Source: a virus
Taxonomy: Duplodnaviria > Caudoviricetes
Virus record (IMG/VR): IMGVR_UViG_3300005444_000009
Span: 2,191 to 66,190 of that record
Strand: one strand, 5' to 3'
Length of the DNA stretch: 64,000 nucleotides
Under the pieces are notes generated by a model. That model saw nothing but the letters and a program-made list of their open reading frames with translations, was not told where the DNA came from and searched no databases. Position numbers and translations under genes: made by a program. Positions 14,646 through 50,797 of this stretch are shown piece by piece. Each line of letters opens with the position of its first letter. The first letter of the stretch is position 1.

Positions 14646-15122
14646 TCAGGCCTTCGGCTTAAGCAGCTCCGCAATGCAGGAGTCGACCCAGACCGTCTCC
14701 GCCGGTGAGGCCTGCGGAATCACGGAGTACGTGTCCGCGAGGAACTTCGTCACGAACTCCCGCGACAGTCGAATCATCGGATTGATCGACTCACCTGTGC
14801 TGAGCACAACGGGCGGGAACTTGAACGTCATGATGTAGCCGTAACGCTTGCTAATGCGCAGTACGGTCTCACCCAGTGAGAGCGACGTGCCGAGCATCGC
14901 GTCCTGCAGCCACTCAGCGACGTAGTCGCGCGAGAACCACATCGTCAGCGTGCGAATGTTGTCTGGGTCGGCGGCCTCACCGTACCTGAAGCTCATGCCG
15001 AATGCGAGCGGGTTGTCCGTGTTGTAGATGAACGTGACCAGTGCCTGGCCGTGGTCGTGACCCTTCAGGCACGTCGCGACGCCGATGGCCTTGCGCTTCA
15101 GGGCGTTGTTCTTTCTGTTCAT
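14646..15122 (-). CDS. Divergent SsgA-like protein (SALP)
   Basis: YNTDNPLAFGMSF, WFSRDYVAEWL and KFLADTYSVIP...VDSCIAELL align with SsgA/SsgB motifs as recalled. Confidence 0.65.
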   Translation of the reverse strand: MNRKNNALKRKAIGVATCLKGHDHGQALVTFIYNTDNPLAFGMSFRYGEAADPDNIRTLTMWFSRDYVAEWLQDAMLGTSLSLGETVLRISKRYGYIMTFKFPPVVLSTGESINPMIRLSREFVTKFLADTYSVIPQASPAETVWVDSCIAELLKPKA

Positions 15123-15147
15123 GTCGATCCTCACTTCTCGATGTCGT

Positions 15148-15288
15148 CTACTCGCCCGAGTAGCAGGTGTCGCAGCACAGAACGGTCAGGAACTCGATCA
15201 GCTCATCCTCGGGAACAAACTTCCCGCAGCTCTCACAGCGCGCGAGGTCGTTGAGCTCGGCTTCCAGTTCCCGTGCTGTCATCATCAT
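15148..15288 (-). CDS. 46-aa zinc-ribbon microprotein
   Basis: Not in ORF track. CESC...CCDTC; ATG 6 nt below a -10 box (leaderless). Confidence 0.6.
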   Translation of the reverse strand: MMMTARELEAELNDLARCESCGKFVPEDELIEFLTVLCCDTCYSGE

Positions 15289-15294
15289 GCTACT

Positions 15295-15323
15295 ATCATA
15301 TCACATTAATGGGCGCCGTGCAA
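15295..15323 (-). promoter_or_regulatory. Sigma70-type promoter with extended -10
   Basis: TTGCAC-N17-TATGAT; the -35 sits mostly in the loop of an 8-bp hairpin (15311-15336). Confidence 0.7.
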
Positions 15324-15342
15324 CCGCGCGGCGCCCAAAACT

Positions 15343-15765
15343 TCACTTAAATACGTAGACGCACTTGACCTCGAGCGCGCCGCCGACCTTAGAATCACGT
15401 GCAACCTCAGTCGTGCCGCGCGTGATTCGACAGTCTAGTCTTTCACCGTAGATCTGTGAGGCCTGGACGAGAATGCGTTGTCCCTGCCGAACGGGCGCCA
15501 GGGCGCGCTGGTAGGGCGACGTAAGTGCGTACTCCTTGTACCGCTCCGGGCTGGCCTCGACCTCAACGGTTACCTGGTCCTTAAGAGTTCGACCCTTCGG
15601 CGGTTGACCGGTGCGCTCCGCAGGCGTGAATTCCACCCACACAATGATCAGGTCGTCCCTGTCGATCAGCTGCTTAACCTTGGGCACAATCGCAAACGCC
15701 GCGACCGCCACCGCGAGAACCACGATGACCCCGATGGGCTTGATTGTCTTAGTGTCGCTGCTCAA
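15343..15765 (-). CDS. Membrane-anchored MmpS-like protein
   Basis: TTG start 6 nt after GGGAGG; N-terminal TM helix; C-terminal LDCRIT...EVKC disulfide pattern. Confidence 0.55.
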   Translation of the reverse strand: MSSDTKTIKPIGVIVVLAVAVAAFAIVPKVKQLIDRDDLIIVWVEFTPAERTGQPPKGRTLKDQVTVEVEASPERYKEYALTSPYQRALAPVRQGQRILVQASQIYGERLDCRITRGTTEVARDSKVGGALEVKCVYVFK

Positions 15766-15992
15766 GTCTTTCCTCCCAAGCGGGAGGGACGCGGGTCGTC
15801 GCCGTAGCCACATTCTCCCGCGTCCCTCTCGGGTTTCCGGTGAGGATCCCTGCCGCACATTCTTCGCCCCGCGCCAGCCTCAGGTCCCAGTTGCCGACCA
15901 GCACGGCCGTGTCTTGGCTAACGCGTCTCCCTCACCGGAGGTCTTTAGTTGTAGCTGGGCAGGTGCGCCGTCGGAGGTAGACCTACCCAACT
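15766..15992 (-). ncRNA. Candidate structured 5' leader / cis-regulatory RNA
   Basis: About 225 nt between a promoter and a start codon; three stems of 10-12 bp plus an anti-SD hairpin; G-U pairs in P1 favour the minus strand. Confidence 0.5.
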
Positions 15993-15997
15993 AGTTC

Positions 15998-16026
15998 ATC
16001 GTATCACTTCGCTGTGATCGATGCAA
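15998..16026 (-). promoter_or_regulatory. Sigma70-type promoter with palindromic spacer
   Basis: TTGCAT-N17-TACGAT; ATCAC-N6-GTGAT at 16003-16018. Confidence 0.7.
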
Positions 16027-16042
16027 ACTCCCTCACTATCGG

Positions 16043-16165
16043 CTACCGGTTCTGCGAGTTTCCGAAGCAGGGCTTCGTGTTCTTGTGCCGGTTGCACGAG
16101 TCGATGCACGCCACCGCGCCGAACAGGACGAGAACGATGGAGATGAAGATGACAGCTTGCTTCAT
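16043..16165 (-). CDS. 40-aa lipoprotein-like microprotein
   Basis: Not in ORF track. MKQAVIFISIVLVLFGAVAC signal/lipobox-like sequence; GAGG SD. Confidence 0.55.
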   Translation of the reverse strand: MKQAVIFISIVLVLFGAVACIDSCNRHKNTKPCFGNSQNR

Positions 16166-16189
16166 GTGTAAACATCCCTCAAACTTGGA

Positions 16190-16342
16190 CTACTTGACAC
16201 CGGGAAGGTCGATCTCTCCAGGATTCGGCATCTTCGAGCTCGGATCAATGAAGAGGTCAGCGAGCCAGCTGAACTGATCGCGGAGGAGCACAATCAACAC
16301 GAGGATGATGACAAAACCCCACACGATGGTCTTAACCTTCAC
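16190..16342 (-). CDS. 50-aa single-TM microprotein
   Basis: Not in ORF track. MKVKTIVWGFVIILVLIVLL; GAGG SD. Confidence 0.55.
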   Translation of the reverse strand: MKVKTIVWGFVIILVLIVLLRDQFSWLADLFIDPSSKMPNPGEIDLPGVK

Positions 16343-16351
16343 TCTTCTTCC

Positions 16352-16633
16352 TCACTTCTCGTGCTTCTTCATGCTGCGCCAGAAGAACGTAAACACGACG
16401 GCCAGAATGATCGCCGTGACGATCAGCGACGTCGCGTTGAACGCGACGGCGCGCTCTCCGTTGTCTGGAGCTGGCGAAGGCGACGGCGCCGCGGCGTGCG
16501 CCGCGTTGTCGCCGATCGGCCAGCAGCCGGTCAGGATGGCCGTGCCGATCCAGATGAGCAGAATCAGTGGAACGATCCACGCCCACCAGCTCTCGGGAAT
16601 CTTGAACTTCCGATCCGCCACACATTCTCCCAT
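16352..16633 (-). CDS. Two-TM membrane protein
   Basis: Two hydrophobic helices joined by an APSPSPAP linker; start uncertain. Confidence 0.6.
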   Translation of the reverse strand: MGECVADRKFKIPESWWAWIVPLILLIWIGTAILTGCWPIGDNAAHAAAPSPSPAPDNGERAVAFNATSLIVTAIILAVVFTFFWRSMKKHEK

Positions 16634-16647
16634 CTGCAGTTGTTTAC

Positions 16648-16689
16648 CTGAGTTTATCATACCAAACGAGTATGATCAAGTAAACTCAG
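16648..16689 (-). promoter_or_regulatory. Promoter embedded in a 42-bp imperfect palindrome
   Basis: TTTACT-N17-TATGAT inside CTGAGTTTATCATAC-N7-GTATGAT-CAAG-TAAACTCAG. Confidence 0.6.
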
Positions 16690-16776
16690 TTCTTAAGATT
16701 TACACCGACGGTCTCATCGGCAGCCGCCTCACGGCTGGACCCGCTCTGCCTCCCGGCGATCGGGTTTCGACCTGTC

Positions 16777-17412
16777 TTACTTGTCGGCGTCCACGACCTC
16801 GAACGTGGGCTCATCGCCCTCGTCGGGCACCTGGCCGACCTGCTCCTCGAGCACCTCGGTCAGCTCATCGTCATCGTCGACCGCGTCGACCGCGTCGGCC
16901 GACTCGGCGAACACGACGTCGTGGCGCGAGAAGACGTCCTCGACGAACCCGTCCGGGTGGATGATGCGCATCCGCGCGTCATCTGACATGTCCTTCATGC
17001 GCTCGCCGATCTCGTTGCGCGCGGCGGTGAAGGTGCGCGAGCGCCAGTCGATGCCGTTCTCGCCGTACTGCACGCGCTCCCAGACCTCGCCGGCCTCCGG
17101 GTCGACGCCGGTCAGGGTCTCGATGTACCGCCACCGCGGAACGATGACCTCCTCGTGGAACGTACGCTTCACCACGCGGTAGCGCTCGTGCGTGTCGGCG
17201 TCCGGGTCCTCCTCCGCGCGCAGCGTATCAACATAGTTCGCCGCAGTCACGAAGCGCCGGGAGCGCCACCGGAGCGCGACGACGTTGCCGTCCTTGACGA
17301 AGGGAACGTCGGACCAGACCTCCTGCTTAAGCACCTCCGGGTGCTCCGGAGTGGGCTGGGTCTCGACCTCGCCGATGTACCGCTGCACGTAGTGGAAGGT
17401 ACCGTTTTCCAT
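16777..17412 (-). CDS. Hypothetical protein with internal duplication and acidic tail
   Basis: EVW...WRSRxFxxA appears twice; D/E-rich C-terminus. Confidence 0.7.
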   Translation of the reverse strand: MENGTFHYVQRYIGEVETQPTPEHPEVLKQEVWSDVPFVKDGNVVALRWRSRRFVTAANYVDTLRAEEDPDADTHERYRVVKRTFHEEVIVPRWRYIETLTGVDPEAGEVWERVQYGENGIDWRSRTFTAARNEIGERMKDMSDDARMRIIHPDGFVEDVFSRHDVVFAESADAVDAVDDDDELTEVLEEQVGQVPDEGDEPTFEVVDADK

Positions 17413-17514
17413 GATCTTCTCCCTCTGTGGGGTTCTCAGACGTGGCTTCTAGTTAGGGCCATCATCAGCAGTCGCGTTACGACTGGACACCCGGTAATGG
17501 GCGGGTGTTTCGGC

Positions 17515-17628
17515 CTAGCGGGACAGCACCTTCAGCAGGAGGTAGCCTCCCACGACTAGCACCATCGACCCAATCATGATCCAGGGGTGGTCCAGACCCC
17601 ACTGCAGGACGTCCCAGCGCGTAATCAC
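17515..17628 (-). CDS. 37-aa single-TM microprotein
   Basis: Not in ORF track. GTGA overlap with upstream gene; MITRWDVLQWGLDHPWIMIGSMVLVVGGYLLL. Confidence 0.5.
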   Translation of the reverse strand: MITRWDVLQWGLDHPWIMIGSMVLVVGGYLLLKVLSR

Positions 17629-17777
17629 GGCTGGCAGCAGCGGTAGTCGCCGCAGCTCTCACCCGGGGCAAGCTCGGGGCAGAGGTTCTGGGAGTAGTGG
17701 TAGTGGCCGCAGCTGCGGCAGTGGTCCTCATCGCGAACGAGCTCGAACTGCGGGTCGTCATCTTCGATGTAGTTCAT
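17625..17777 (-). CDS. 50-aa Cys/His-rich microprotein
   Basis: Not in ORF track. AGGAG SD; CRSCGHYH...C...CGDYRCC. Confidence 0.6.
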   Translation of the reverse strand: MNYIEDDDPQFELVRDEDHCRSCGHYHYSQNLCPELAPGESCGDYRCCQP

Positions 17778-17817
17778 CTTCGGTCTCCTTAGTTGGCCGT
17801 TTTTTCCTCCTGAGTTA

Positions 17818-17854
17818 ATTGTATCACATTATTGTGACCATAGTCACAATAATG
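17818..17854 (-). promoter_or_regulatory. Promoter overlapped by a 12-bp inverted repeat containing a perfect CRP-type box
   Basis: -10 TACAAT; CATTATTGTGAC-CATA-GTCACAATAATG; TGTGA-N6-TCACA at 17833-17848. Confidence 0.6.
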
Positions 17855-17886
17855 CGGTAAAACTTTTGTCACGTTTGTGACTTATT

Positions 17887-18201
17887 CTAGTCCTCGGCCG
17901 CGATAGTCGTGCCCGGGAAGTACAGGATGACGTCCAGACCCATGTTGTCGAGGCAGGGCCGCGACATCATCTCGGCGAGCAGGCCGCGGTTCTCGATGTC
18001 ATTGTGGAGAACTACAGCCAGCGCCGCGCCGAGCGCGGCGATGTGCTGAAGCTCGATGACGAAACCCACGCAGTGCGTGCCGCCCATGCCGCGACCAGAG
18101 TAGGTCTCGCGAATGTAGTCATCGCCGACCCCGACGCCGAACATATCGAAGAGAACGCCCTCGACCGCAGCGAGCTGGCTGCGCTTAATCGTCCTTCTCA
18201 T
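17887..18201 (-). CDS. Hypothetical protein
   Basis: GAGGAG SD; YSGRGMGGTHCVGF and LDNMGLDVILYFP are conserved-looking motifs. Confidence 0.7.
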   Translation of the reverse strand: MRRTIKRSQLAAVEGVLFDMFGVGVGDDYIRETYSGRGMGGTHCVGFVIELQHIAALGAALAVVLHNDIENRGLLAEMMSRPCLDNMGLDVILYFPGTTIAAED

Positions 18202-18217
18202 CTTCTCACTCCTCAGC

Positions 18218-18430
18218 TTAGAACTTCTCGACGGGCGTGCAGTCGTACTGCACGATGTAGTTGCGAACGACGGCCTTGGCCTGAGTCTCGACGGCCCGGC
18301 GGCCGTTGACTATGATGACATATGAGTCTCGACCGTACCGCGCACGCGGCGCGGCGAGGAACGTACGAACGCACACCTTATCTCCGGTGCTCCGGCTGAC
18401 GTACCTAGAGTCGACGTACGGACGCTTCAT
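18218..18430 (-). CDS. Basic hypothetical protein
   Basis: Start reassigned to ATG 18430 after AAGTGAGGAGTGAGAAG. Confidence 0.6.
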   Translation of the reverse strand: MKRPYVDSRYVSRSTGDKVCVRTFLAAPRARYGRDSYVIIVNGRRAVETQAKAVVRNYIVQYDCTPVEKF

Positions 18431-18441
18431 CTTCTCACTCC

Positions 18442-18567
18442 TCACTTAATCAGTAGAACCACTGCGTAGATCAGGGCGCCGCCGACCAGCAAGCCACCCA
18501 CAATCATGCCGCTGTAGGCGATCGCGGCGATGAACAGCTCAACCAGGTTCTTTTCCGTTTTCCTCAT
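18442..18567 (-). CDS. 41-aa TM microprotein (leaderless)
   Basis: Not in ORF track. ATG 6 nt below -10; long hydrophobic run. Confidence 0.6.
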   Translation of the reverse strand: MRKTEKNLVELFIAAIAYSGMIVGGLLVGGALIYAVVLLIK

Positions 18568-18573
18568 ACGTTA

Positions 18574-18602
18574 ATCATATCACATTAATGTGATGTATGC
18601 AA
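18574..18602 (-). promoter_or_regulatory. Sigma70-type promoter with perfect 16-bp palindrome
   Basis: TTGCAT-N17-TATGAT; ATCACATTAATGTGAT at 18579-18594. Confidence 0.75.
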
Positions 18603-18622
18603 CTACTAATGTGAGCTAATTT

Positions 18623-20221
18623 TCAGTAGCCTCGACGCTCCCCGGACCAGCTACCAAACCCGGCGTTCGATCCTAGGCCGGTGAAGCTGCCGTTCATCAG
18701 GTCGCTGGCACCGACGGAGCCGAGAAGGCTGGGCGCCTCCAGTAGCGCGTTCGTCTTGAGCTCAGCCGTCCAGCTCGCGGGCACGAACGCCAGCAGCGCA
18801 GACTCGGCCAAGTCGGGCGACACGCCGAGCCTCTCGATGATCTTACTCTTCGCCTCGATCTGCACACGACCCTTAGCGTCGACGATCTTATACAGCGGCA
18901 TCGTCAGCTCGCTGATCAACTGGTCCTGCAGCTCTGGGTTCAGCGCAGATAGGTCCCAGCTCTTCGTGCGCGACAGCTCGCGGCCAAGCCACCACATCTC
19001 GGCGCGGCGGTTAAAGTACAGGTGCTCGTTGCCCACCGTAGCCGTCATCGCGACGTTGATCGGCACCACGGACGCGTCGTGCCCCGTCGCATCGGTCGCA
19101 CGCTGCGCGTCGAGCACCTCCAGTGGCGCCGAGGCGTGCCTGCTGGACAGGGCGCGTAGGTGACCGTAGACGCCCCAGCCGACGCCGATGCTGTCGACCT
19201 TGACGAACGCGACGCCCCACTCGCGTAGAAGCTGAACGATCGACCCGACTGTGGTCGTTGGGTCGGGCGACACGAACTGCTGGACGTGAAGTATCGTGTT
19301 GCCTCGTCGGATCGTCACGACGGTCCGGTCGTTCCCGGCGCCGACGTCGACCCCGGCCTCGGTGTGCATCGTCGGGTCGACAGGCAGCTCGAGGTAGCGA
19401 CACTGCGACGCCCAGTCGTGCGGCACGACCTGCCAGGGCGAGCCGACGGTCGGAAAGTTACCCTCGCACTTTGACTGGAACAGCGCCGAGTGCGCACCCC
19501 AGACCTTACGGCGGTCCTCCACCCAGCCGGGGCTAATGAGCATCTCGCGCAGGCGGTCGGAGACGACCTCACCGGTAAAGTTTGGCGTGTGCTGATAAGA
19601 AATGTGAATTACGTGCCAACCCGAGCCCGGCTTGCAGATGTCCTCGAACATACCAGCGCCGTCGGGGTTACCCACGGCCACCATGCGCGCGTTCTCGTTG
19701 GACGCCAGTGATGACCCCTCGTTCCACAGGTGCAGGGGTATCCCGTACGCCTCGTCGAATATCACCATGAGGTAGCGAGCGTGAAGGCCCTGGAAGGCGG
19801 CCTCCACGTGGTCGGGTGGCTTCCGGCCGAGCGCCGCCAGGAACTTTCCGAGGAACCACTCCCGCTTATTGGTGTGGCCGGCGAGGCCGAGTCGCTCGTG
19901 GTGCTGGTTGATCTCGTTCCACAGAACCGCGTCGACCTGCTTAGACGTCGGCGCCGTTGAGATGACGCGAGCCTCACCTGCCGGGTGAGCGTCGATCCAC
20001 CAGCACGTCAGCAGTCCCATTGTGTAGCTCTTACCCGCGGAGTGGCACGATCGGATCGCCACCTTCGGGTGATCCCGGACGGCCTGCAGAATCTCACGCT
20101 GCTTCGACCAGATCTCGACCTTGGCCCGCTCGATCGCCCAGCGCGTCGGGTCGCGGCGCCACTTCAGGTTGGCGGGCGCCGCGTACTCGGCGAACAGCTG
20201 AGCTCTCGTCTTAGCCTGCAC
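18623..20221 (-). CDS. Terminase large subunit
   Basis: Walker A IRSCHSAGKS, Walker B VIFDEA, nuclease motifs GVDVG and SPDLAES. Confidence 0.9.
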   Translation of the reverse strand: MQAKTRAQLFAEYAAPANLKWRRDPTRWAIERAKVEIWSKQREILQAVRDHPKVAIRSCHSAGKSYTMGLLTCWWIDAHPAGEARVISTAPTSKQVDAVLWNEINQHHERLGLAGHTNKREWFLGKFLAALGRKPPDHVEAAFQGLHARYLMVIFDEAYGIPLHLWNEGSSLASNENARMVAVGNPDGAGMFEDICKPGSGWHVIHISYQHTPNFTGEVVSDRLREMLISPGWVEDRRKVWGAHSALFQSKCEGNFPTVGSPWQVVPHDWASQCRYLELPVDPTMHTEAGVDVGAGNDRTVVTIRRGNTILHVQQFVSPDPTTTVGSIVQLLREWGVAFVKVDSIGVGWGVYGHLRALSSRHASAPLEVLDAQRATDATGHDASVVPINVAMTATVGNEHLYFNRRAEMWWLGRELSRTKSWDLSALNPELQDQLISELTMPLYKIVDAKGRVQIEAKSKIIERLGVSPDLAESALLAFVPASWTAELKTNALLEAPSLLGSVGASDLMNGSFTGLGSNAGFGSWSGERRGY

Positions 20222-20230
20222 CAGCTCAGC

Positions 20231-20401
20231 CTAGCTCAGGGTCCAGCCGAGCATCAGGTCGCGCAGGTTGAGGCCCGCCGCGTAGATGAGGCCGAGCAGT
20301 AGAAGAACGCTGGCGGCGTACCGGTGCAAGTTACGCTCAACCCAGCGCTTCACCCGGTTCCACCAACTACGACGCTTGAACGGAAGTGCATAGGTACTCA
20401 T
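20231..20401 (-). CDS. Small TM protein
   Basis: Start reassigned to ATG 20401; C-terminal hydrophobic helix. Confidence 0.55.
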   Translation of the reverse strand: MSTYALPFKRRSWWNRVKRWVERNLHRYAASVLLLLGLIYAAGLNLRDLMLGWTLS

Positions 20402-20461
20402 AGTGACTAACTGTAGCACGCGTGTCAAACCGTAGCCACACTAAGTCACATTATGTACGGC

Positions 20462-20495
20462 GAAGGCCCCCAGCCTGGCGGGGCTGGGGGCCTTC
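20462..20495. terminator. Terminator-like hairpin
   Basis: 14-bp stem GAAGGCCCCCAGCC with 6-nt loop. Confidence 0.7.
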
Positions 20496-20521
20496 TCCTC
20501 CCGGGGATTAAGGTCTAGGTG

Positions 20522-21061
20522 CTACTTCTGGTCGACGTAGAGCTGAGGCGCCTTAACCGCCAGCGGCCGGTCGGTCTGCTGATACATGCCGTTCCACGTC
20601 ACCTTCGTGCCGTCCACGGTGAAGAAGAAGATGCCGTCCTCGTTCGGACCGTAGGAGCCGTCGTCACCCGGCGCCTCACCGAGCGCGTAGCACGCGGCGT
20701 CGGCGTAGGTGCAGATGTGAACCGCGGAGTCCATCGGCGCCATCTGCGACTGGTTGCTGGACACCTTACCCTTCACGACGTAGTACCCGATGACCTCACC
20801 GGTCCACGAGAACGTGTAGACGTAAGTGACCCGGTTCGGGTCGTTGTCACGGTCGAACTTGCGCCTGAGGTTAACGCACTCCTGCGACTCGTTCTTCTCG
20901 CCGCAGAGCACGACCGACTTCTCCTTGTTGGCGCGAGCCTCCTCACCCTTCGTTGAGGTCGAGCCGCCGCAGGCAGTAGCCACAACGAAGACGGCGACGA
21001 CGCCGAGGCCAGTCAGGCTCTTCACCAGTGTGGACACCTTGATCGTACGCTCACTTGTCAC
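20522..21061 (-). CDS. Lipoprotein of unknown function
   Basis: VVATAC lipobox; GKVSSNQSQM and DGSYGPNEDGIFFFT are conserved-looking motifs. Confidence 0.75.
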   Translation of the reverse strand: MTSERTIKVSTLVKSLTGLGVVAVFVVATACGGSTSTKGEEARANKEKSVVLCGEKNESQECVNLRRKFDRDNDPNRVTYVYTFSWTGEVIGYYVVKGKVSSNQSQMAPMDSAVHICTYADAACYALGEAPGDDGSYGPNEDGIFFFTVDGTKVTWNGMYQQTDRPLAVKAPQLYVDQK

Positions 21062-21501
21062 TTCACGTTCTCCTTGCAGTCGGTCCGGGAGTCCTCGTCA
21101 TTGATCCGGTTGGGTGTCTCGCTGTCGTGCCAGTCCTCGACCAGGACCTTGCCCGACTCCGCGTTGTAGTCCTCCACAGCCGTCCGGCAAGCCATGATCT
21201 GGCCGTCCAGGTTCTGCTGCGCGATGCGGTCGTTGGGATGCGCCCTGACGGTCGCCGCGAGCTGGTCGATGTTCCGGTCCAGCGCGATGACCCCGTAGTA
21301 CTTATCCCGCAGCATCGACTGCGCCGCCACGCGGTTTTTGGCGTTCTGGTTCATGATCACCGTGTCGCCGTCGCCCTTGATCCCCGCAGTGTTGACGCGG
21401 AAGAACCAGACGCCGATCGAGATCGCGGCGATGATGCCCAGTACCAGGAGTCCAACCCCAAGAATCTTCCAGATGCTCGGGCCTTCGTCGTAGTCGTTCA
21501 C
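21058..21501 (-). CDS. Single-TM coiled-coil protein coupled to the lipoprotein
   Basis: N-terminal TM; CRTAVEDYNAES; 4-nt overlap with next gene. Confidence 0.75.
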   Translation of the reverse strand: MNDYDEGPSIWKILGVGLLVLGIIAAISIGVWFFRVNTAGIKGDGDTVIMNQNAKNRVAAQSMLRDKYYGVIALDRNIDQLAATVRAHPNDRIAQQNLDGQIMACRTAVEDYNAESGKVLVEDWHDSETPNRINDEDSRTDCKENVK

Positions 21502-21566
21502 CGGGTTTTAGTCTCCCCTCTAGTGGTGAACTCGCTCATACAGACTAATGTATCACACGTCTGCAA

Positions 21567-21947
21567 CTAAACGGGTCTAACCTCACCAAGATTTAGTAGA
21601 ACCTCGCTGGGCTCCACCTCGCCACCGGTCGCGACGTCCACGTCGAGCGTCCAGGGCGACCGCAGCGTCACCTGCCGCTTAATGAGAACCAGGCCGTCGC
21701 GCGCGTCCATGCCGTTGCGTCGGCGGTCCTCGTTGGTCAGGCGCGCGTGGCGCAGGATTCGGTCGCCGTCGTCGTCCTCGTACAGCGGAGTCTCAAGAAG
21801 CAGCTCTCGCATGGAGTCTGGGATTGTGCCGCCGTTCGACTTGAACTTCGGCTCCCAGACCTGCTCGTCGTTGAAGACCCCGAACGTCGTTGTGACCGTG
21901 AAGTCGTTGACGTCGAAGCCCTCGAATGTGTCGTGTTGTTCGCTCAT
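21567..21947 (-). CDS. Hypothetical protein
   Basis: 126-aa ORF in operon context. Confidence 0.65.
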   Translation of the reverse strand: MSEQHDTFEGFDVNDFTVTTTFGVFNDEQVWEPKFKSNGGTIPDSMRELLLETPLYEDDDGDRILRHARLTNEDRRRNGMDARDGLVLIKRQVTLRSPWTLDVDVATGGEVEPSEVLLNLGEVRPV

Positions 21948-22030
21948 CCGAAGAACCCCAGTAGGTAGAGTACGAACCCCAGCAGCGCCGCGATGATCAG
22001 TGCTGTACCAATCTGATCAAGTACCTTCAC
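21944..22030 (-). CDS. 28-aa TM microprotein
   Basis: Not in ORF track. MKVLDQIGTALIIAALLGFVLYLLGFFG; 4-nt overlaps on both sides. Confidence 0.55.
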   Translation of the reverse strand: MKVLDQIGTALIIAALLGFVLYLLGFFG

Positions 22031-22575
22031 TGGTGCCTTACCTCCTCCCGGGCGTGCTCGGGCAGACCGAGCTTACCCCAACGGTTCCACAGTTCTTGAC
22101 TTCGTGCCGCGGTACACGCGTCGCACGGCACGTTGTACGACGTGAGGTGCCGGTTGTACCCGCGCAGCGTCCCGACGTCGGAGCCGCAGGTGGGCACCAG
22201 TGAGTGCCTGGTGACGTTGCGCCGCAGCGGCGTAGGCGACGCCGCGGGTACCTCGGTGACCTCCGTCTCGCCCTTCTCGTAGCGCCGCGCCTTGCGCATT
22301 GCCTCACGGGGCTGCCGTGCTGCCTTGTGATACCGGTCGACCCGGCCGTAGGCGTTGAGCCGGAAGTCGGCGACGCCGAAGTCCTGCTTGACCCTGAAGC
22401 CGAGCGCCGCGAGTACCTCGGCGCAAGCCCAGATCTGCTCATCATCGTCGCCGTCCGGATCGTAAAACGTGCTGGCGACGAAGAGGGCCGTAGCCCGCAG
22501 CTCCTGAGGAGTACGACCTACGGCCGGAGTAATGTGCCTCTTGTGCATGGAGTCGCCGTCGGTCTGGGACCTCAC
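22027..22575 (-). CDS. Hypothetical protein with C-terminal CGTxxGY..H..C..C metal-binding motif
   Basis: CGSDVGTLRGYNRHLTSYNVPCDAC, a motif common in actinophages. Confidence 0.7.
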   Translation of the reverse strand: MRSQTDGDSMHKRHITPAVGRTPQELRATALFVASTFYDPDGDDDEQIWACAEVLAALGFRVKQDFGVADFRLNAYGRVDRYHKAARQPREAMRKARRYEKGETEVTEVPAASPTPLRRNVTRHSLVPTCGSDVGTLRGYNRHLTSYNVPCDACTAARSQELWNRWGKLGLPEHAREEVRHQ

Positions 22576-22823
22576 TTGACGCCCCAGCAGACCTGGAGCC
22601 CGTTGTTCGCGGCGGGCTCACACGTTACCTGGGTGTTCGGCTCCCTATCGGCATTCTTCGGTACGCAGCCGCTCAGCAGCAGACCGGCGCCGATCAGCGT
22701 GAGCCATAGGACCGCCATGATAATCATCCAGCCCCAACGGTTCGAGAACCCAACCCAGCGGCGACGTCCGCAGCGCAAGTCGTCGCAGACCAGAGCAAAT
22801 TGTCCCCTGTACCTTCGTCTCAT
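22572..22823 (-). CDS. Lipoprotein-like protein with N-terminal Cys motif
   Basis: GAGGAG SD; TM helix ending in LLSGC. Confidence 0.55.
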   Translation of the reverse strand: MRRRYRGQFALVCDDLRCGRRRWVGFSNRWGWMIIMAVLWLTLIGAGLLLSGCVPKNADREPNTQVTCEPAANNGLQVCWGVK

Positions 22824-22833
22824 CTTCACTCCT

Positions 22834-23103
22834 CTACAGCGTGACGTTGTGGTAGAGCCGTGCGTGACGAGCTGCGGAGCCCCACGCGTCACTCCAGGTT
22901 TGCGTCGTTGACATGACCACCTTGTACTCGACGATGCAGCAGTCACAGCGCATTCGCCAGACTACGCGAGTGTCGGAGCGCCAGCGCTGGTCATCTCGCC
23001 AGATCTTAATCTTTCCGCTCAACCAGATCACCCTCACGTCACGCTCGGGAAGCCAAACTCTCTCGCCGTTCCGCCAGACCCGGCGCCCTTGCGCGTAGGA
23101 CAC
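22834..23103 (-). CDS. Trp/Arg-rich hypothetical protein
   Basis: ORF in operon context; CDCC...H motif. Confidence 0.55.
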   Translation of the reverse strand: MSYAQGRRVWRNGERVWLPERDVRVIWLSGKIKIWRDDQRWRSDTRVVWRMRCDCCIVEYKVVMSTTQTWSDAWGSAARHARLYHNVTL

Positions 23104-23132
23104 GATGGGGCGCGGGATCCGGTAGGTCGGCG

Positions 23133-23528
23133 CTAGTCTTTTGGGTCCTCCACGGCCGGAACGTCGGGAGGCGCGGTGTAGTCCATGTCCGCCGTCAGCG
23201 GGTGACCGTCGTCCCTGAACACGACCCGAACGCTCTCCGCGTCACGCATCACGTAGGTCAACCTCTCCCAGTCGAGCCGGTTCGGCCGACCCGTGTCGAG
23301 AGCGTCGCTGGTGATGCCGGACAGGTACCACTGCGTGTCCGTGGCCTTAACCGCGGCGTAGTGGAACACCGTATCGCTGTCAGCGTACACCTTGTCAAAC
23401 GCAATGATGGTGCCGACCTCGAAGCGGTCGCCGGGGAAGCGCTCCAGCTCCGTCAGCTCCTGCTGCATGTTAGCGATCTGCGCCCGCAGAACGTTGACGC
23501 GACTCACGCGCGTAACTCGACTCGTCAC
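23133..23528 (-). CDS. Hypothetical protein
   Basis: Strong SD; YAAVKA...WYLSG motif. Confidence 0.7.
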   Translation of the reverse strand: MTSRVTRVSRVNVLRAQIANMQQELTELERFPGDRFEVGTIIAFDKVYADSDTVFHYAAVKATDTQWYLSGITSDALDTGRPNRLDWERLTYVMRDAESVRVVFRDDGHPLTADMDYTAPPDVPAVEDPKD

Positions 23529-23690
23529 TTCCTCACTCCTCTCAATCTCCTTGGCGTACTGACCGGCCAGCGCTGTGAAGGTCCGGCCGGTACCCAGGAA
23601 CCCCTGGTTAATTCCTCCCGGTAAGACTCATTCCGGGACACGTCGTGCCGTTCCAGTGGTTAGGGGTGTGGCGGATGCGTCTTAGTGTTT

Positions 23691-24002: not shown

Positions 24003-24005
24003 TCG

Positions 24006-41708: not shown

Positions 41709-43052
41709 TTGAGAAAGCGAGTCGGCTACGCGAAGCTCGGCCGGTCGATGCCCCTAGCGCTCGAGAACTGCGGCAGCCTCGGCGGCGACGTCGAGATGGT
41801 GCCCACACTGAAGCTGCTGGCGGAGCGTCACCCAGACGTGGACTTCATCCTGATCGGCCGGAACTCGGGTGAGCTGCCCGAGGACGTCGGTCTGCCGAGC
41901 AACGTGCTCAACCCGTGGCGAGTCTGGAAGCCGATCATTCGGCGTGAGCTTCAACGTGCGGGCCTGAACTACTCGAACCTGACGATCCCCGACCACCGTG
42001 AGGTTACCGCGCTGATTCACAAGTACACCTGGGAGGAGTTCAGCCTCCTCGATGAAATGATCATGTGGCTTGGCCAACACGGCACCACGAACACACCTCT
42101 GCCGTCCGTCAGCGATCGTCAAAAGCTCACCAAGCCCTACGACTGGGCGACGCTGTATGGCTCGTACCTGCTGCAGGGAATCAACGCCTGGCGCGACGTC
42201 GACCCACTTAACCGCGAGGAAGTGCTGCTCAACGCGGACGTTCGCAACTACGTCAAGTACCGCGACAGTAAGTGGCCGTGGCAGCATCCTGTACTGGCAC
42301 AGTACACGTACACAAACAATGTGAAGCACGAGAGGTACGGCGCCGACACAGACATGTTCCTAGAGTTCTCACAGCGCCCAGTGTCAGACAGTGTGAACTG
42401 GATCGAGAACGGCGCGATCTGGACGTCGCGAGTCCAGAACGTCTACTCACGCCTAGAGATCTCGTCGCTGATTCCCGGCACGCCGTTCGGCGACACGATC
42501 AAGTTCAACGGCGACTTCAACCGGCCGCACGACTTCGGCATCGTCGTCAACGAAACGCGGCGTGAGGTCAGCGAGGCGAAGGCACGCCGCACGGTGCTGC
42601 GCGACTGGGTGCTGCCGATTGACAACATTGGGTTCATTCACGGTAAGTGGTCGCAGCGCTCGCTGGACGAGCTAGGCGTCGACATCAATCCGGTGCCGCA
42701 GCTCGAGTACATCCCGAAGCTGCAGACCGCGCGGTGCACCTTCACGACACCGGCCAGCGGCTCGGGCTGGGCGACCGCGAAGCCGTGGGAGGCGTTCGCC
42801 GCGGGAGTGGTGTGCTTCTTCCACCCAGACTACGATGACCAGAACAACATCCTCGGTGACATGCGCAACCGGGAGGTCGCCGACTGGCTTCGCTGCGAGA
42901 GTCCGCAGCAGCTCGCGGATCGAATCAGGTACACGTGCTACAACCGTGAGGTCTGGGAGTGGCTCGTCGACGAGCAGCGTGAGCACTTCAACAAGGCGGT
43001 CGAAGAGAAGACGTACCTTAAGATGATCGAGGAGAGGTTAGACCTGCCGTGA
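41709..43052 (+). CDS. T4 beta-glucosyltransferase-like DNA glycosyltransferase (GT-B)
   Basis: C-terminal KPWEAFAAGVVCFFHPDYDDQNNIL...LADRI...EQREHFNK parallels T4 BGT as recalled. Confidence 0.7.
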   Translation: MRKRVGYAKLGRSMPLALENCGSLGGDVEMVPTLKLLAERHPDVDFILIGRNSGELPEDVGLPSNVLNPWRVWKPIIRRELQRAGLNYSNLTIPDHREVTALIHKYTWEEFSLLDEMIMWLGQHGTTNTPLPSVSDRQKLTKPYDWATLYGSYLLQGINAWRDVDPLNREEVLLNADVRNYVKYRDSKWPWQHPVLAQYTYTNNVKHERYGADTDMFLEFSQRPVSDSVNWIENGAIWTSRVQNVYSRLEISSLIPGTPFGDTIKFNGDFNRPHDFGIVVNETRREVSEAKARRTVLRDWVLPIDNIGFIHGKWSQRSLDELGVDINPVPQLEYIPKLQTARCTFTTPASGSGWATAKPWEAFAAGVVCFFHPDYDDQNNILGDMRNREVADWLRCESPQQLADRIRYTCYNREVWEWLVDEQREHFNKAVEEKTYLKMIEERLDLP

Positions 43053-43897
43053 GAGGTTCATCAGGCGCACGGTTCATTGACAGTTCTCCCGTTATGATCA
43101 CTAAGCAAGACACGGCCGTTACCGGTCGACGTGTACGCGACCAGGGGATCTGGCTCCAGCAGCTGAACGAGTCGTCCGTGCTTCCTGTAGTCTTCGCGGT
43201 GCACCAGAATCGCTACGACATGGAGCGACTCGACGTCGGCACCATTCCCACCACGTGGGAGCAGACGTTCGAACTCTGCAGCGACATCATCGCTGAGTTG
43301 GAGACTCACCTGTGGTACAAGAACTTCAAGGGACGCGTGCCGCACCTCATGGAGTTCGACCGTGGTGAGCACAACGGCTACATCATCGACCTCCTGACGG
43401 ACGTCGGGCTGCGCAGCTACCGCCGAAAGCTTCACCAGTTCGTTGGGAACGTCGACTGGTTCGGCTACAAGACGCCGCGGGTGGCGCGTACGCACGGCGA
43501 CTGCATCATCGACAACGTCGCCTGGCGGCGCACCGAGTCAGAACTTAACAAGCTGGTGCTGCTCGACCCGATTCCTGCGACGTCGGCGCTACCCGACCTC
43601 GCCTGCGTCGACGTCGGCCGCGTCATCCAGTCCGCCGCTGGCTACGAGGTGACGCGCTACTTCGAGGACACGCGGCCGCTGCTCGGCATTCCACTCGATC
43701 AGCGTGTTGACGACGTCCTTAACGGCTGGCTAAGTGATGAGTTCTGTCTCAACGAGGTACGCGCGTCGCTTCACTTCAGCATCATTCACATGCTGCGCGG
43801 ACTACGCACGGCGCAGCGCGTCGCACCTAAGAGCTGTAAAGCTCTCGAGCTACTAGTCGATCAACTTGTGGAGGTTACAGAGACGTGGATGCAGTAA
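43049..43897 (+). CDS. APH/choline-kinase-fold phosphotransferase (putative sugar kinase)
   Basis: THGDCIIDNV and LLDP motifs. Confidence 0.75.
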   Translation: MRGSSGARFIDSSPVMITKQDTAVTGRRVRDQGIWLQQLNESSVLPVVFAVHQNRYDMERLDVGTIPTTWEQTFELCSDIIAELETHLWYKNFKGRVPHLMEFDRGEHNGYIIDLLTDVGLRSYRRKLHQFVGNVDWFGYKTPRVARTHGDCIIDNVAWRRTESELNKLVLLDPIPATSALPDLACVDVGRVIQSAAGYEVTRYFEDTRPLLGIPLDQRVDDVLNGWLSDEFCLNEVRASLHFSIIHMLRGLRTAQRVAPKSCKALELLVDQLVEVTETWMQ

Positions 43898-44610
43898 TCC
43901 TCGCCGGCGGCAGGGGACAGCGCGTCGCCGGCATTACCAAGCTGTTTCACAAGCCGCTGCTCGAGATCGAGGGTGAGCCTCTGCTCCTGCGCGCCGTTCG
44001 GCAGGCACGTAGCCTCGGCGTCGAGGTACCCGTAGTCGTTACGTCGCCAGCCATCGCCACGCTGGTAGCGCAGGTCCTCGGCGACGTACCCGCTAACCTG
44101 ATCATCCAGCGTGAGCCGCTTGGACCGGGCGACGCTCTTCGGGTCGGCCTGCAGGTGCGCAACCGCAGCGTCGGCAGCTACCGCGTTCTCGTGCTGCTGA
44201 GCGACAACTACACCAGCGACGCCGACCTCACCGCGGTCTGTTCGTACGAGGTCGCCGTCGGCGTGCACACCACCCCGCGAGCCGAGGCGCAGCGATTCAC
44301 ATGGTACGACCCCGACCGCGACACGTGGATCGAGAAGCAGACCATTCCCGACGGCTCACCCGTGGAGTGCTGGGTCGGACCGTTCGTGGGTTGGCGTAGT
44401 AAGATGGAACGCGTTATGAGTCGTGTGTGTGAAACTCGTAAGCTCAACGGCGGTGAGGCCCTCATCGGCCCGTACCTCGGAGAAATGACCAACGAGACGC
44501 GCACGGTTCGGGTTGAGGTCGACTCGATCGACGTCGGTACCGTCGAGTCTTACCAAGCAGTGAAGGAGCGAGTAGGTGACTCAAGTATTGCCGTCGGACG
44601 ATCCCACTGA
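43885..44610 (+). CDS. Sugar-1-phosphate nucleotidyltransferase
   Basis: VILAGGRGQR...HKPLL; LLSDN; DVGT. Confidence 0.85.
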   Translation: MDAVILAGGRGQRVAGITKLFHKPLLEIEGEPLLLRAVRQARSLGVEVPVVVTSPAIATLVAQVLGDVPANLIIQREPLGPGDALRVGLQVRNRSVGSYRVLVLLSDNYTSDADLTAVCSYEVAVGVHTTPRAEAQRFTWYDPDRDTWIEKQTIPDGSPVECWVGPFVGWRSKMERVMSRVCETRKLNGGEALIGPYLGEMTNETRTVRVEVDSIDVGTVESYQAVKERVGDSSIAVGRSH

Positions 44611-47405: not shown

Positions 47406-48296
47406 ATGTCAACACGAGGAGTTGACTACACCGGCGGCGCAGATATCGCCGCGCTGGTCGCCGCGGGAATCAAGTTCGCGTGCCGCTACGGCGGCCCAGG
47501 CGGGTCGTGGAAGCACATCACCCCGGCGGAGGCGCAGGCTTTGAGCGCGGCCGGGATCGCGGTCGTGGCGAACGCCGAGGGGTCGGCGAGCGGCCTGATC
47601 GGCGGCTGGTCCACCGGTGTGGATTGGGCCCGCCAGGCGGAGGCGCATTTCGCCGCGTGCGGCATGCCACCAGACAAGCCGATCTACTTTAGCGTGGACT
47701 TCAACGTCACCTCGACGCAGTGGGAGGCGGTCGCCGCGGCCCTGCGCGGCGCGGCGGAGGTTCTGGGCGGGGTGCATCGCGTTGGCGTGTACGGCGGCCG
47801 TCGTGCGATCGAGTGGGCTCGCGGGAGTAATGTCGCGCGATGGTTCTGGCAGACCTACGCCTGGTCCAGCGGTGTGTGGATACCGGGTAATCACATCGAG
47901 CAGTACAGCAACGATGTCCCACTTGCGAGTATCCGGCTCGACCTCGACCGAGCTCTGACGAGCGACTACGGCCAGTGGATGATTGGAGATAATATGAGCG
48001 AATGGAGTCAAGCTGATCCGTACGGGCCAGATCCGGATGGCTTTAACCGGACGCCCGCGCAGAAGCAGCGCGACGATCACGCGGCGCTGTTCTTCGGTGA
48101 AAGACCGGTAACTGAAACAGGTCAGCCGGTAGGCCCGGAGCCGTGGATCGTAGCAAAGATGAACGAGATCGAGGCTAAGATTGGTGCACCTGCATCGGTA
48201 GACATCCCCGCGTTAGTCGCGGCGCTCAAGCCGGAGCTCGAGGCGGCGGCCGAGCGTGCGGTGCGCAAGGTTTTTGCGGATGGAGCGACGCCGTAG
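47406..48296 (+). CDS. Endolysin, DUF1906 (Rv2525c/GH25-like) glycoside hydrolase
   Basis: GVDY, FACRY, IYFSVDF, VGVYG, WFWQTYAWS. Confidence 0.88.
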   Translation: MSTRGVDYTGGADIAALVAAGIKFACRYGGPGGSWKHITPAEAQALSAAGIAVVANAEGSASGLIGGWSTGVDWARQAEAHFAACGMPPDKPIYFSVDFNVTSTQWEAVAAALRGAAEVLGGVHRVGVYGGRRAIEWARGSNVARWFWQTYAWSSGVWIPGNHIEQYSNDVPLASIRLDLDRALTSDYGQWMIGDNMSEWSQADPYGPDPDGFNRTPAQKQRDDHAALFFGERPVTETGQPVGPEPWIVAKMNEIEAKIGAPASVDIPALVAALKPELEAAAERAVRKVFADGATP

Positions 48297-48541
48297 TGAC
48301 CAGCATTCTCGAGAAGAAGCCACCACGGTACTGGGAGACCAGCGACTTCTGGAAGGACATCGGCGAGCGCGTCGTGACGTCTTACCTGATCGCGCTGGCG
48401 TTGCTGGTGACCGTCGCGGACTTCGACCTGTGGAGCGGTAAGGCGTGGCTCGGCGCGCTGGTCGGCGCCGGCATCTCCACCGTCAAGGCGCTCATCGGAG
48501 CGCTGCGCAAGAACTCGACCACACCCGTGAGCATCATTTAG
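48296..48541 (+). CDS. Holin
   Basis: FWKDIGERVVTSY motif, two TM helices, coupled to the lysin gene. Confidence 0.75.
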   Translation: MTSILEKKPPRYWETSDFWKDIGERVVTSYLIALALLVTVADFDLWSGKAWLGALVGAGISTVKALIGALRKNSTTPVSII

Positions 48542-48552
48542 TATTCACTAAG

Positions 48553-48583
48553 CGGCTCGCCCAAAAGAATCTTGGGCGAGCCG
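48553..48583 (+). terminator. Intrinsic terminator
   Basis: 12-bp stem followed by TTT. Confidence 0.75.
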
Positions 48584-48584
48584 T

Positions 48585-48613
48585 TTGCATGTGGTCATAC
48601 TGTGTTGTATGAT
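48585..48613 (+). promoter_or_regulatory. Sigma70-type promoter
   Basis: TTGCAT-N17-TATGAT immediately after the terminator. Confidence 0.7.
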
Positions 48614-48678
48614 TAATACGTAAGCCGCTGAACGACACAGAGCGAGTCAGCGCAGGGACTAGTGAGAAGAGATCAGAG

Positions 48679-48885
48679 ATGACGAAGGTCCAGATTAAGG
48701 ACGCCTACGGAAACACCTACGACGCAACGCTAGTCAAGGTTGCGCGAAAGTACGTCTACGTCCAGATCGACTTTGGCTTTGGCCTCGAGACCGTTCCATT
48801 TGAACGTCTTACTGGCCGCACCTCTCAAGGGTACGAAGAGAAGTACAACTCCACGCCGATGTTCTTGCAAAAGACGGCGAGGTAA
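48679..48885 (+). CDS. Small beta-rich hypothetical protein
   Basis: First gene after the promoter. Confidence 0.6.
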   Translation: MTKVQIKDAYGNTYDATLVKVARKYVYVQIDFGFGLETVPFERLTGRTSQGYEEKYNSTPMFLQKTAR

Positions 48886-48890
48886 TCGTA

Positions 48891-49289
48891 ATGAAGTGCG
48901 GACACTGCAAGGCCAAGCACGACACGGTCGCTCAGGTTCGAGCCTGCTCCCTGGGTCACGTTCAACCGACCGCGCCGCAGTTTCACCCAGTGACCGAGCC
49001 CGGGATGTACCGACGCGACGGCGAGATCTACCAGGTCGTTAAGTCGAAGAGCGACAGACTGTACGCTAAGCACCTGGTGTTCACGTATGTAAATGGGCAC
49101 GTCCACAAGATCGAGCTTGACTACAGCAAGGGTATGATCTTCAACATCCACGCCGAGGACCGCTTGACGATCGCCGAGGCCGCTGAGATCGGTAAGCTTA
49201 CCGCACACTGCGTGGTCTGCCGGAAGAAGCTCAAGGTCAAGAAGTCGATCGACGCGGGTATCGGTCCCATCTGCGCCAAGAAGGTGTGA
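48891..49289 (+). CDS. DUF6011-like zinc-binding protein
   Basis: CVVCRKKL...SIDAGIGPICAKK; N-terminal CGHC...H...C. Confidence 0.75.
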   Translation: MKCGHCKAKHDTVAQVRACSLGHVQPTAPQFHPVTEPGMYRRDGEIYQVVKSKSDRLYAKHLVFTYVNGHVHKIELDYSKGMIFNIHAEDRLTIAEAAEIGKLTAHCVVCRKKLKVKKSIDAGIGPICAKKV

Positions 49290-49290
49290 A

Positions 49291-49488
49291 GTGAGTCAAG
49301 AGCGCAACCTCGTTGGAACGTACCGTAGGCAGGGTACATTCCGTGCGCAGCACGCCGAGAAGAGCGGGCGTGCTGCGCAGCGGACTCCGCTGCCCCCGCG
49401 ATGCCGCGACTGTAGACTGCCTGGTACGATAGGTGTAATGATCGACGGTGTGAAGGAGTTCTTCTGCGCCGCGCACGTTGAGATCTGA
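49291..49488 (+). CDS. Small basic zinc-finger-like protein
   Basis: CRDC...CAAH. Confidence 0.55.
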   Translation: MSQERNLVGTYRRQGTFRAQHAEKSGRAAQRTPLPPRCRDCRLPGTIGVMIDGVKEFFCAAHVEI

Positions 49489-49502
49489 GGAGAAGTGAGA
49501 AG

Positions 49503-50489
49503 ATGACCGTAGAGATCGAGGACCAGACCCAGACTTACGCAGACGTGGACCAGGCGTTCAGTGCACGTGAGGTTCCCTGGATGAAGATGGGCAAGCTAAC
49601 CAGCGAGCCCGTGACAGCGGCTGAGGCCGCGGAGCTCGGGGGACTCAACTTCGAGGTGGAGATGCTCGACGTCGCGTACGTGTCCGGCACCATCGGGCAG
49701 AATCCGGTCTGGAAGCCCATCCCGACGCGCAAGGCGATCGTCGCCAAGGACAACGGTGACTTCATGGGGTTCGCGTCAACGAAGATGTACAACTCGCTGC
49801 AGTACGCGGAGGCGTTCAACTTCATGGACACCGTCGGGCTGCACTACGTCGCGGCAGGCACGCTGCGGAAGCGGCGGCAGGGCTTCATGGTCGTCAAGCC
49901 GGAGATCCAGTTTAACGTACTCGACGGCGACGACCCACATAGCCTATACGCGGTGCTTCGCACCAGTCACGACTGCTCGCGCGGCATCGAGGTGTCCGTC
50001 ATGCCTCTTCGCGAGCGCTGCATGAACCAGTTGACCCTTCGCACCTTCGCCAAGGACGCGCAGTACCGCTGGTCGATCAAGCACACCACCACGATGCACG
50101 CCAAGCTCAAGGAGGCACAGGACTCGCTCGCTAAGATCGGCATGTACGTCAAGCGGTTCGAGGGAATCGCCAAGCGTCTGGCCGACGTCACCGTCAGCGA
50201 GGACAAGGCGCACAACCTGCTGAAGATCGTCATCCCGCAGCCGAACGGCAAGACGGACCGGACCGAGGAGCAGTGGAAGGAGCGCCTGAACGACATCATC
50301 AACCTCTGGCAGACGGCGCCGACCGTAGCCTACGCGGGTACCGGCTGGGGGCTCATCAACGCGGTCTCGGAGCACTTCGACTGGATGCGCACTGGCGGAA
50401 CGCCCGAGTCTCGGTTCCTCAACGCACTCGAGGGTGAGACCCACAAGAAGGTCAACAAGATGGCCGGTCTTCTGCTTTCGGCGCACTAA
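49503..50489 (+). CDS. DUF932 (TIGR03299-like) protein
   Basis: PWMKMG, LRTSHDCS, RCMNQL, WGLINAVSEHFD. Confidence 0.85.
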   Translation: MTVEIEDQTQTYADVDQAFSAREVPWMKMGKLTSEPVTAAEAAELGGLNFEVEMLDVAYVSGTIGQNPVWKPIPTRKAIVAKDNGDFMGFASTKMYNSLQYAEAFNFMDTVGLHYVAAGTLRKRRQGFMVVKPEIQFNVLDGDDPHSLYAVLRTSHDCSRGIEVSVMPLRERCMNQLTLRTFAKDAQYRWSIKHTTTMHAKLKEAQDSLAKIGMYVKRFEGIAKRLADVTVSEDKAHNLLKIVIPQPNGKTDRTEEQWKERLNDIINLWQTAPTVAYAGTGWGLINAVSEHFDWMRTGGTPESRFLNALEGETHKKVNKMAGLLLSAH

Positions 50490-50797
50490 TGAAAGCTCAC
50501 TGGGAGCACCGAGCACTCTGTCGAAGAGTCAACCCGGAGGTGTTCGAGGACCCCGCGCACGAGGAGACGGCGCTGGCGATCTGCCAGCGCTGCCCCGTAC
50601 GCATTCAGTGCCTCGAGTATGCGCTCAACCTGACTCCAGCGCCCGAGGGCGTCTGGGGTCAGACCACGTTTGAGGAGCGTCAAAAGATCAAACGGGGCGG
50701 ACACCGCGCCTCGTGTCCCGGCTGCGGCGGCTACGACCTGTACAGCGACGGAGTCGCTGAGATCTGCGTGAGCTGCGGCATCTCGTGGCTGACCTAG
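50489..50797 (+). CDS. whiB-like: WhiB-family regulator with C-terminal zinc ribbon
   Basis: ALC...ICQRCPVRIQCL...GVWG; then CPGC...CVSC. Confidence 0.88.
   Translation: MKAHWEHRALCRRVNPEVFEDPAHEETALAICQRCPVRIQCLEYALNLTPAPEGVWGQTTFEERQKIKRGGHRASCPGCGGYDLYSDGVAEICVSCGISWLT

Follow-up and report, generated by a model that had tools for sequence, protein, structure and literature searches.

A bacteriophage genome recovered from metagenomes, IMG/VR record IMGVR_UViG_3300005444_000009, encodes homologues of three families known from actinomycete sporulation: a BldC-like protein fused to a Cys/His module, a WhiB-like (Wbl) protein, predicted to be an Fe-S regulator, and a divergent SsgA-like protein (SALP). 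The window analysed here comprises 64,000 nucleotides, bases 2191-66190 of the 66,190-bp record, which is a single contig with direct terminal repeats and is rated complete. We consider it moderately probable that the three proteins are separate mimics of host developmental factors, each acting alone, which would keep the infected hypha vegetative and undivided. A sequence-only reading of the same DNA had reported BldC-, WhiB- and SsgA-type genes together with a Crp-type box in one phage and had proposed that they form a coordinated system. All four elements were confirmed on the complete contig. The coordination was not upheld: the three genes sit in three different contexts, relatives of the phage were found without any of them, and every combination was seen across phages.

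Searches of solved structures matched the BldC-like protein to Streptomyces BldC (PDB 6AMA/6AMK) with an E value of 2e-19 and 36 of 53 residues identical (68%). The protein scored 53 bits against Pfam HTH_17 and passed the NCBIfam model for the BldC helix-turn-helix (HTH), NF033787 HTH_BldC, with 98.1 bits for a cut-off of 77. Its domain is 80-84% identical to the cellular BldC proteins of Micromonospora, Actinoplanes, Dactylosporangium, Allorhizocola and Actinomadura, as against 48% at most for similar MerR-like genes of isolated actinophages. Residue roles were taken from the published BldC study (PMC5859096) and applied to the 6AMA alignment; the DNA-reading residues Lys26, Arg30 and His46 and the oligomer-interface residues Glu16, Arg22 and Gly44 were all kept, as were Trp31 and Arg48. 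The phage protein departs from the single-domain form expected of BldC (about 68-80 amino acids), since its 127 residues include a linker and a C-terminal module of 42 residues. This module is not present in cellular BldC and was seen solely in phage-type fusions. About 20 fusions with the same architecture of BldC domain, variable linker and module were found, some of them on contigs of 66-67 kb. In the structural model, the predicted local distance difference test score (pLDDT) was about 90 for the HTH, below 50 for linker residues 64-83, as expected of a disordered segment, and 70-75 for the module, which is a probable small zinc-binding domain. Few of the genes shared with the near-identical record G001 have diverged as far as the BldC-like gene (70% identity), owing to an insertion or deletion in the linker.

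Homology between the SALP and the SsgA family was established by three independent lines of evidence: fold, an outward profile search and a profile search back. The AlphaFold model (pLDDT 79) displays the SsgB fold, with two four-stranded sheets and a helix after each. Foldseek returned SsgB structures (3CM1, 6SLC, 6SUJ) for all of its top 8 matches, with an E value of 7e-6 and template modelling (TM) scores of 0.66-0.73 by target length, and VIA-align superposed the model on SsgB with Z-scores of 12.4-12.8 and a root-mean-square deviation of 2.6-3.3 Å over 109-121 residues. A profile built from the four closest homologues retrieved 17 proteins among 1.84 billion representatives. The most distant of these passed the Pfam SsgA model (42-52 bits), and the intermediates matched it below threshold over its full length. 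In the reverse direction, the family profile recovered canonical SsgA genes on other viral contigs with an E value of 7e-10. The family has its own N-terminal motif, TC..(G/M)H.HG, and several members lie on contigs of 67.3-67.6 kb.

Taken alone, the SALP sequence gave faint signals. In a six-frame search it scored 11.5 bits against Pfam PF04686 SsgA (cut-off 25; E 0.0135; model positions 7-95 of 98), a Pfam scan of the protein returned nothing at E <0.01, and NCBIfam SsgD was matched at 16 bits over nearly its full length. PHROGs held no match, neither did GenBank phages when searched by tblastn with the SALP and its distant relative P0019, and BLASTP detected no similarity to the SsgA protein of phage Dagobah. 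The single sequence matched no solved structure; its profile gave a weak match to SsgB (E 0.17). Scans of IMG/VR found no SALP relative, and a metagenome scan found one distant match, on a 145-kb contig whose neighbouring genes are not shared. Alignment with homologues placed the start of the gene at the ATG at 15122 (MNRKNN) and not at the GTG at 15134. The gene belongs to an accessory island, made up of roughly twelve small genes, between the terminase and portal genes. Directly upstream of it, at 15148-15288, lies an open reading frame for a Cys-rich protein of 46 residues (CxxC...CC..C); the phage encodes several small Cys-rich proteins and Cys-rich tails.

The Wbl protein scored 63 bits against Pfam PF02467 (cut-off 23.6; 63.9 bits in the six-frame search). 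It displays the four cysteines of the family, Cys11-X20-Cys32-X2-Cys35-X5-Cys41, together with a turn of the G[VI]WGG type, GVWGQ, and an extra zinc-ribbon-like C-terminal tail, CPGC...CVSC (CxxC...CxxC), which is retained in homologues of 69-86% identity. The stop codon of the preceding DUF932 gene overlaps the WhiB start (TAATG), and the two genes are therefore probably translated as a pair. An open reading frame for a protein of 182 residues at 22027-22575 was also considered as a Wbl gene and rejected: its 'WhiB-like' PHROG match is confined to a C-terminal CGS..G..GY..H...C..C motif, and it has no Wbl domain.

Gene order and distribution indicated that the three genes are independent of one another. 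They lie at 14.6, 24.0 and 50.5 kb, 9 and 26 kb apart and on two strands, and are neither adjacent nor arranged for co-transcription: the SALP gene stands between terminase and portal, the BldC-like gene between primase and terminase, and the WhiB gene at the end of the opposite arm. Three relatives recognised by their PolA (41-46% identity) keep primase, PolA and helicase (G003-G005), and two of them, G003 and the 67.5-kb G004, also keep capsid and portal. None of the three had a match to 14128-25232 or 47406-50797, and searches for BldC, Wbl and SALP genes detected no member of these families in them, in records that are rated 46-83% complete and may lack sequence. Among 79 other BldC-type-positive viral records in IMG/VR, WhiB was found in 29 and a SALP in 3. 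The five closest WhiB relatives carry neither a BldC nor a SALP gene, and the Streptomyces phage Dagobah carries SsgA only. No joint gain or loss of the three genes was seen across relatives. Collectively, the gene contexts and the distribution argue that the three genes are not one genetic module, lie in different variable regions and have been gained and lost independently. The sequence-only reading had named independent distribution, together with the absence of a developmental effect, as the outcome that would speak against it, and the first of these is essentially what the co-occurrence survey found.

How three such proteins might act can be proposed from their host counterparts, with which each mimic would compete or co-assemble. 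The most likely target of the BldC-like protein is either the set of sites bound by host BldC or the host protein itself, because its domain is near-cellular and keeps the DNA-reading and oligomer contacts. It could bind host-type AATT-N4-C direct repeats or co-polymerise head-to-tail with host BldC, so that sporulation genes would stay repressed, and its Cys/His module may add a further contact. BldC delays development and prolongs vegetative growth (PMC6428758). The SALP would interact with proteins that partner SsgB, for instance FtsZ or membrane anchors, and so misplace sporulation septa or prevent them from forming. Other Wbl proteins dock on the principal sigma factor, and the phage Wbl may do likewise, disturbing septation control of the WhiA/WhiB type. 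The Wbl of phage TM4 can block septation, according to work cited in PMC7650747. The net effect would be a vegetative, unseptated hypha, which would counter the host's sporulation-based containment of infection; sporulation of Streptomyces accelerates on phage infection, and developmental genes are repressed in early Alderaan infection (PMC10117723, PMC10276819). Action on host development can reasonably be inferred, since the BldC-like domain keeps all DNA-reading and oligomer residues except Arg47. The three predicted activities share a coherent direction, and a combined effect on host development is plausible.

Several observations weigh against three separate host mimics, some of them touching the proteins and others their separateness. 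Arg47, one half of the basic wing Arg47-Arg48, is a Cys in the BldC-like protein (position 47 is Arg, His or Ser in other fusion members). Identity between the SALP and SsgB is only about 15%, and the SALP gene adjoins packaging genes, a position that may indicate a function within the phage itself. The sequence-only reading had described homologues of three tiers of the sporulation cascade; the BldC, Wbl and SALP homologues are genuine, whereas the place of the Wbl in the cascade could not be established. Because WhiB1, the best PDB match (48.5 bits), outscores Streptomyces WhiB, the next (41.8 bits), the protein is best classed as a generic Wbl, and membership of the developmental WhiB (WhiB2) class is not demonstrable. 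As to separateness, the SALP-positive records among the 79, namely G025 and G028 (one lineage) and G036, all carry WhiB; the cluster BE phages Belfort and Faust carry SsgA and WhiB without BldC, so that SALP and WhiB recur together; and a SALP relative and a WhiB relative (P0009 and P0156) apparently lie on one and the same contig, judged by its matching length of 67,566 bp. Some functional link between SALP and WhiB may therefore exist.

In the main rival reading, all three proteins would work for the phage's own cycle and would leave host development alone; we judge this unlikely, although it deserves to be taken seriously. The BldC-like protein would then be a transcription or architectural factor, comparable to D29 Gp36 or to Xis-type proteins, the Wbl would switch on phage genes via the host sigma factor, and the SALP would be a nucleic-acid-binding packaging helper, its fold being common to Whirly and guide-RNA-binding proteins. 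D29 Gp36, which regulates phage genes and resembles BldC or Xis (PMC12266134), offers a precedent that has to be set against the 80-84% identity of the BldC domain to cellular BldC and its much lower identity to MerR-like proteins of isolated actinophages; such a near-cellular domain therefore argues for selection to keep a host-type interface. The position of the SALP gene between terminase and portal fits a packaging role, and so do the next-best folds in VIA-align, RNA- or single-stranded-DNA-binding proteins with Z-scores of 8-9.4 (MRP1/2 9.4, Whirly proteins 8.5), but SsgB lies about 3 Z units above these nucleic-acid binders. Direct repeats of the BldC type (AATT-N4-C) number 21 in the phage, slightly above the 12.8 of shuffled sequences; this excess is not significant, being reached by 7 of 100 shuffles, and no perfect tandem site (AATT-N4-C twice) was found in the phage.

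A different view keeps the host as the target and lets the mimics act jointly, blocking entry into development, its transcriptional execution and the placement of septa, and so countering sporulation-based containment. Through its Cys/His module, the BldC fusion would hold filaments of host BldC in place on whi-type promoters, the Wbl and the SALP would simultaneously disable the WhiA/WhiB-SsgB-FtsZ route, and several phage lineages would each have arrived at this three-part solution on their own. We regard such joint action as improbable.

Slightly more doubtful still is the coordinated, co-selected system of the sequence-only reading, which would reprogramme hyphal development either by holding the host vegetative or by routing phage genomes into spores. 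The trio does reappear in at least two further viral lineages that are unrelated (G025/G028 and G036), and WhiB is present in 3 of 3 SALP-positive records (Fisher one-sided p = 0.046), a value that becomes 0.13 when G025 and G028 are counted as one. In G036, an 86-kb record, the SsgA-family gene runs into the beginning of a WhiB gene whose product is extended by a C-terminal HTH (L173, 1297-2254), and these two genes are likely to be translationally coupled; a BldC-type gene lies 13 kb from the pair in the same record. Against a system stand the distances, strands and contexts of the three genes, the relatives without all three and the occurrence of every partial combination. The 10-mer GAGAAGTGAG, considered as a common control element upstream of the SALP, BldC-like and DUF932/WhiB genes, was rejected since it precedes many other genes; judged by this distribution, it is the phage's general Shine-Dalgarno-like ribosome-binding motif. 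A shared host type also accounts for co-occurrence and best explains why the trio recurs in lineages that are unrelated, with perhaps a loose association of SALP and WhiB. That the genes are functionless passengers, recently captured and decaying, is very improbable: they lie in variable regions, but their three frames are intact with high third-position GC, the SALP and BldC-fusion families are each conserved across many diverged members, some on contigs of full genome size, and catalytic or binding residues are retained.

The fourth element is the Crp-type box. It is a perfect TGTGA-N6-TCACA match, TGTGACCATAGTCACA, at 17833-17848, present in a single copy in an AT-rich intergenic gap. The palindrome around it overlaps a promoter-like site directed toward the SALP-bearing island, and the centre of the box falls between the predicted -35 and -10 elements, a position that fits repression better than activation. 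A perfect Crp-type match was also obtained in 9 of 100 shuffles. The box is a plausible operator; as a single copy it is not significant, it is weak when taken alone, and it proves nothing.

The G+C content of the window is about 61%, and the source runs for the phage DNA are many rhizosphere and soil metagenomes. Genes run leftward from about 29.0 kb and continue across the record ends into the tape measure, tail genes and glycosyltransferases. The rightward arm (29224-50797) holds genes for nucleotide metabolism, PolA, an SNF2 helicase, a nuclease, a sugar-nucleotide module, a C5 methylase, a lysin and a holin, followed by DUF932 and WhiB. The coordinates of the main features are listed in the table below.

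Table. Positions of the three genes of interest and of neighbouring or landmark features in the window
Feature	Positions	Strand or direction	Evidence or remark
Major tail protein	335-1102	leftward	
Protease, then major head protein	1978-3657	leftward	
Portal; lower border of accessory island	12476-14125	-	PHROG 776, 252 bits
DUF1360 membrane protein, directly downstream of SALP gene and upstream of portal	14128-14517	-	Pfam DUF1360, 39.9 bits; PHROG 781, 50 bits
Divergent SsgA-like protein (SALP fold), 158 amino acids	14646-15122	-	Fold and profile searches
26-bp palindrome ATTATTGTGAC-CATA-GTCACAATAAT	17828-17853		Core is the Crp-type box
Large terminase; upper border of accessory island	18623-20221	-	PHROG 2, 98 bits
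BldC-family winged HTH with C-terminal Cys/His module, 127 amino acids from ATG	24006-24389	-	PDB, Pfam, NCBIfam
C-terminal module of 42 amino acids, FTPGEPFVSE...C.H...C..C	24009-24134	-	Conserved in about 13 aligned phage-type fusions
Primase-helicase	26407-28962	leftward	
DUF932 gene, stop overlaps WhiB start (TAATG)	49503-50489	+	Pfam DUF932, 119 bits
Wbl protein, predicted Fe-S regulator, 102 amino acids, last gene of rightward arm	50489-50797	+	Pfam PF02467
Tape measure	61625-63739	leftward	

The phage is probably virulent, because a scan of roughly 65 of its genes revealed no integrase. A megablast search of GenBank phages with 25 kb of the window gave no match. PolA is at most 38.5% identical to that of any isolated phage, so that no cultured relative reveals the host, and its best matches are all from actinophages. 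The host most probably belongs to the filamentous soil actinomycetes that form spores, and a member of the Micromonosporaceae or Streptosporangiales is more likely than Streptomyces. This assignment relies on the identity of the BldC domain, which is 80-84% with Micromonosporaceae and Actinomadura and 68% with Streptomyces, and on the presence of the phage in rhizosphere and soil runs.

Further features of the genome were recorded in passing. PHROG 781, the family of the DUF1360 gene, is common in phages. A single tRNA gene, for tRNA-Met (CAT), was found in the window, at 30256-30331 and close to where the rightward arm begins. Two stretches of this arm (33242-34631 and 41709-44610) encode a thymidylate-synthase-fold enzyme, a dCMP deaminase, a P-loop kinase-like protein and a nucleotidyltransferase alongside unassigned neighbours, a set that suggests hypermodification of the phage DNA, with glycosylation as a query. 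The lysin encoded at 47406-48296 contains an Rv2525c-like glycoside hydrolase domain. Its gene is missing from the relative G001, which is 94-100% identical elsewhere, and this marks the lysis cassette as mosaic.

Phages are suspected of countering accelerated sporulation, and experimental support exists only for WhiB. The virus described here supplies three testable candidates at once, two of which, the BldC fusion and the divergent SALP, are forms not described in the literature found. The negative result on coordination matters too: finding developmental genes together does not justify calling them a system unless their co-inheritance has been tested. The whiB and ssgA genes of phages, and the proposal that they manipulate development, have already been published (PMC7650747, PMC10117723), and a WhiB-like gene is present in about 24% of actinophage genomes according to the figure cited in PMC10117723. 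Our literature search found no link between BldC-family genes and actinophages. What is new is the family of BldC-Cys/His fusions, the divergent family of phage SALPs and the measured independence of the three genes.

Each of the three proteins can be set beside a known counterpart. Like mycobacteriophage TM4 WhiB and other phage WhiB-like proteins, the Wbl is actinophage-encoded and has the four-cysteine domain above the Pfam cut-off; unlike the TM4-type proteins, it has the extra CxxC...CxxC tail, is probably coupled translationally to DUF932 and cannot be placed in the WhiB2 or developmental class. The SALP shares its fold and its membership of the SsgA-like superfamily with the phage-borne SsgA proteins of Dagobah (MT711977; Hardy et al. 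2020, PMC7650747), Belfort and Faust. The Belfort and Faust genes, gp212 (L179, 2471-2851) and gp210 (L180, 2450-2827), are annotated as 'hypothetical protein' and score 55-60 bits in Pfam, above the cut-off, and both genomes also hold Lsr2 besides WhiB; SsgA-type genes thus stand unannotated in well-known cluster BE Streptomyces phages, which are isolated and can be used experimentally. The SALP has no BLAST similarity to Dagobah SsgA, and it differs from all three phage proteins in falling below the Pfam cut-off, in being encoded between terminase and portal and in belonging to a separate family of 17 representatives with its own N-terminal Cys/His motif. The BldC-like protein has the same winged HTH as Streptomyces BldC (6AMA/6AMK; Schumacher et al. 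2018, PMC5859096), passes the same NCBIfam model and keeps the key residues, whereas it is phage-encoded, has Cys in place of Arg47 and has gained a disordered linker and the 42-residue Cys/His module. With D29 Gp36 and the phage Xis/MerR-like HTH proteins (PMC12266134) it has in common a small MerR-like winged HTH of the kind that binds direct repeats; those proteins resemble BldC in structure only, whereas the protein described here is a member of the BldC family at the level of sequence.

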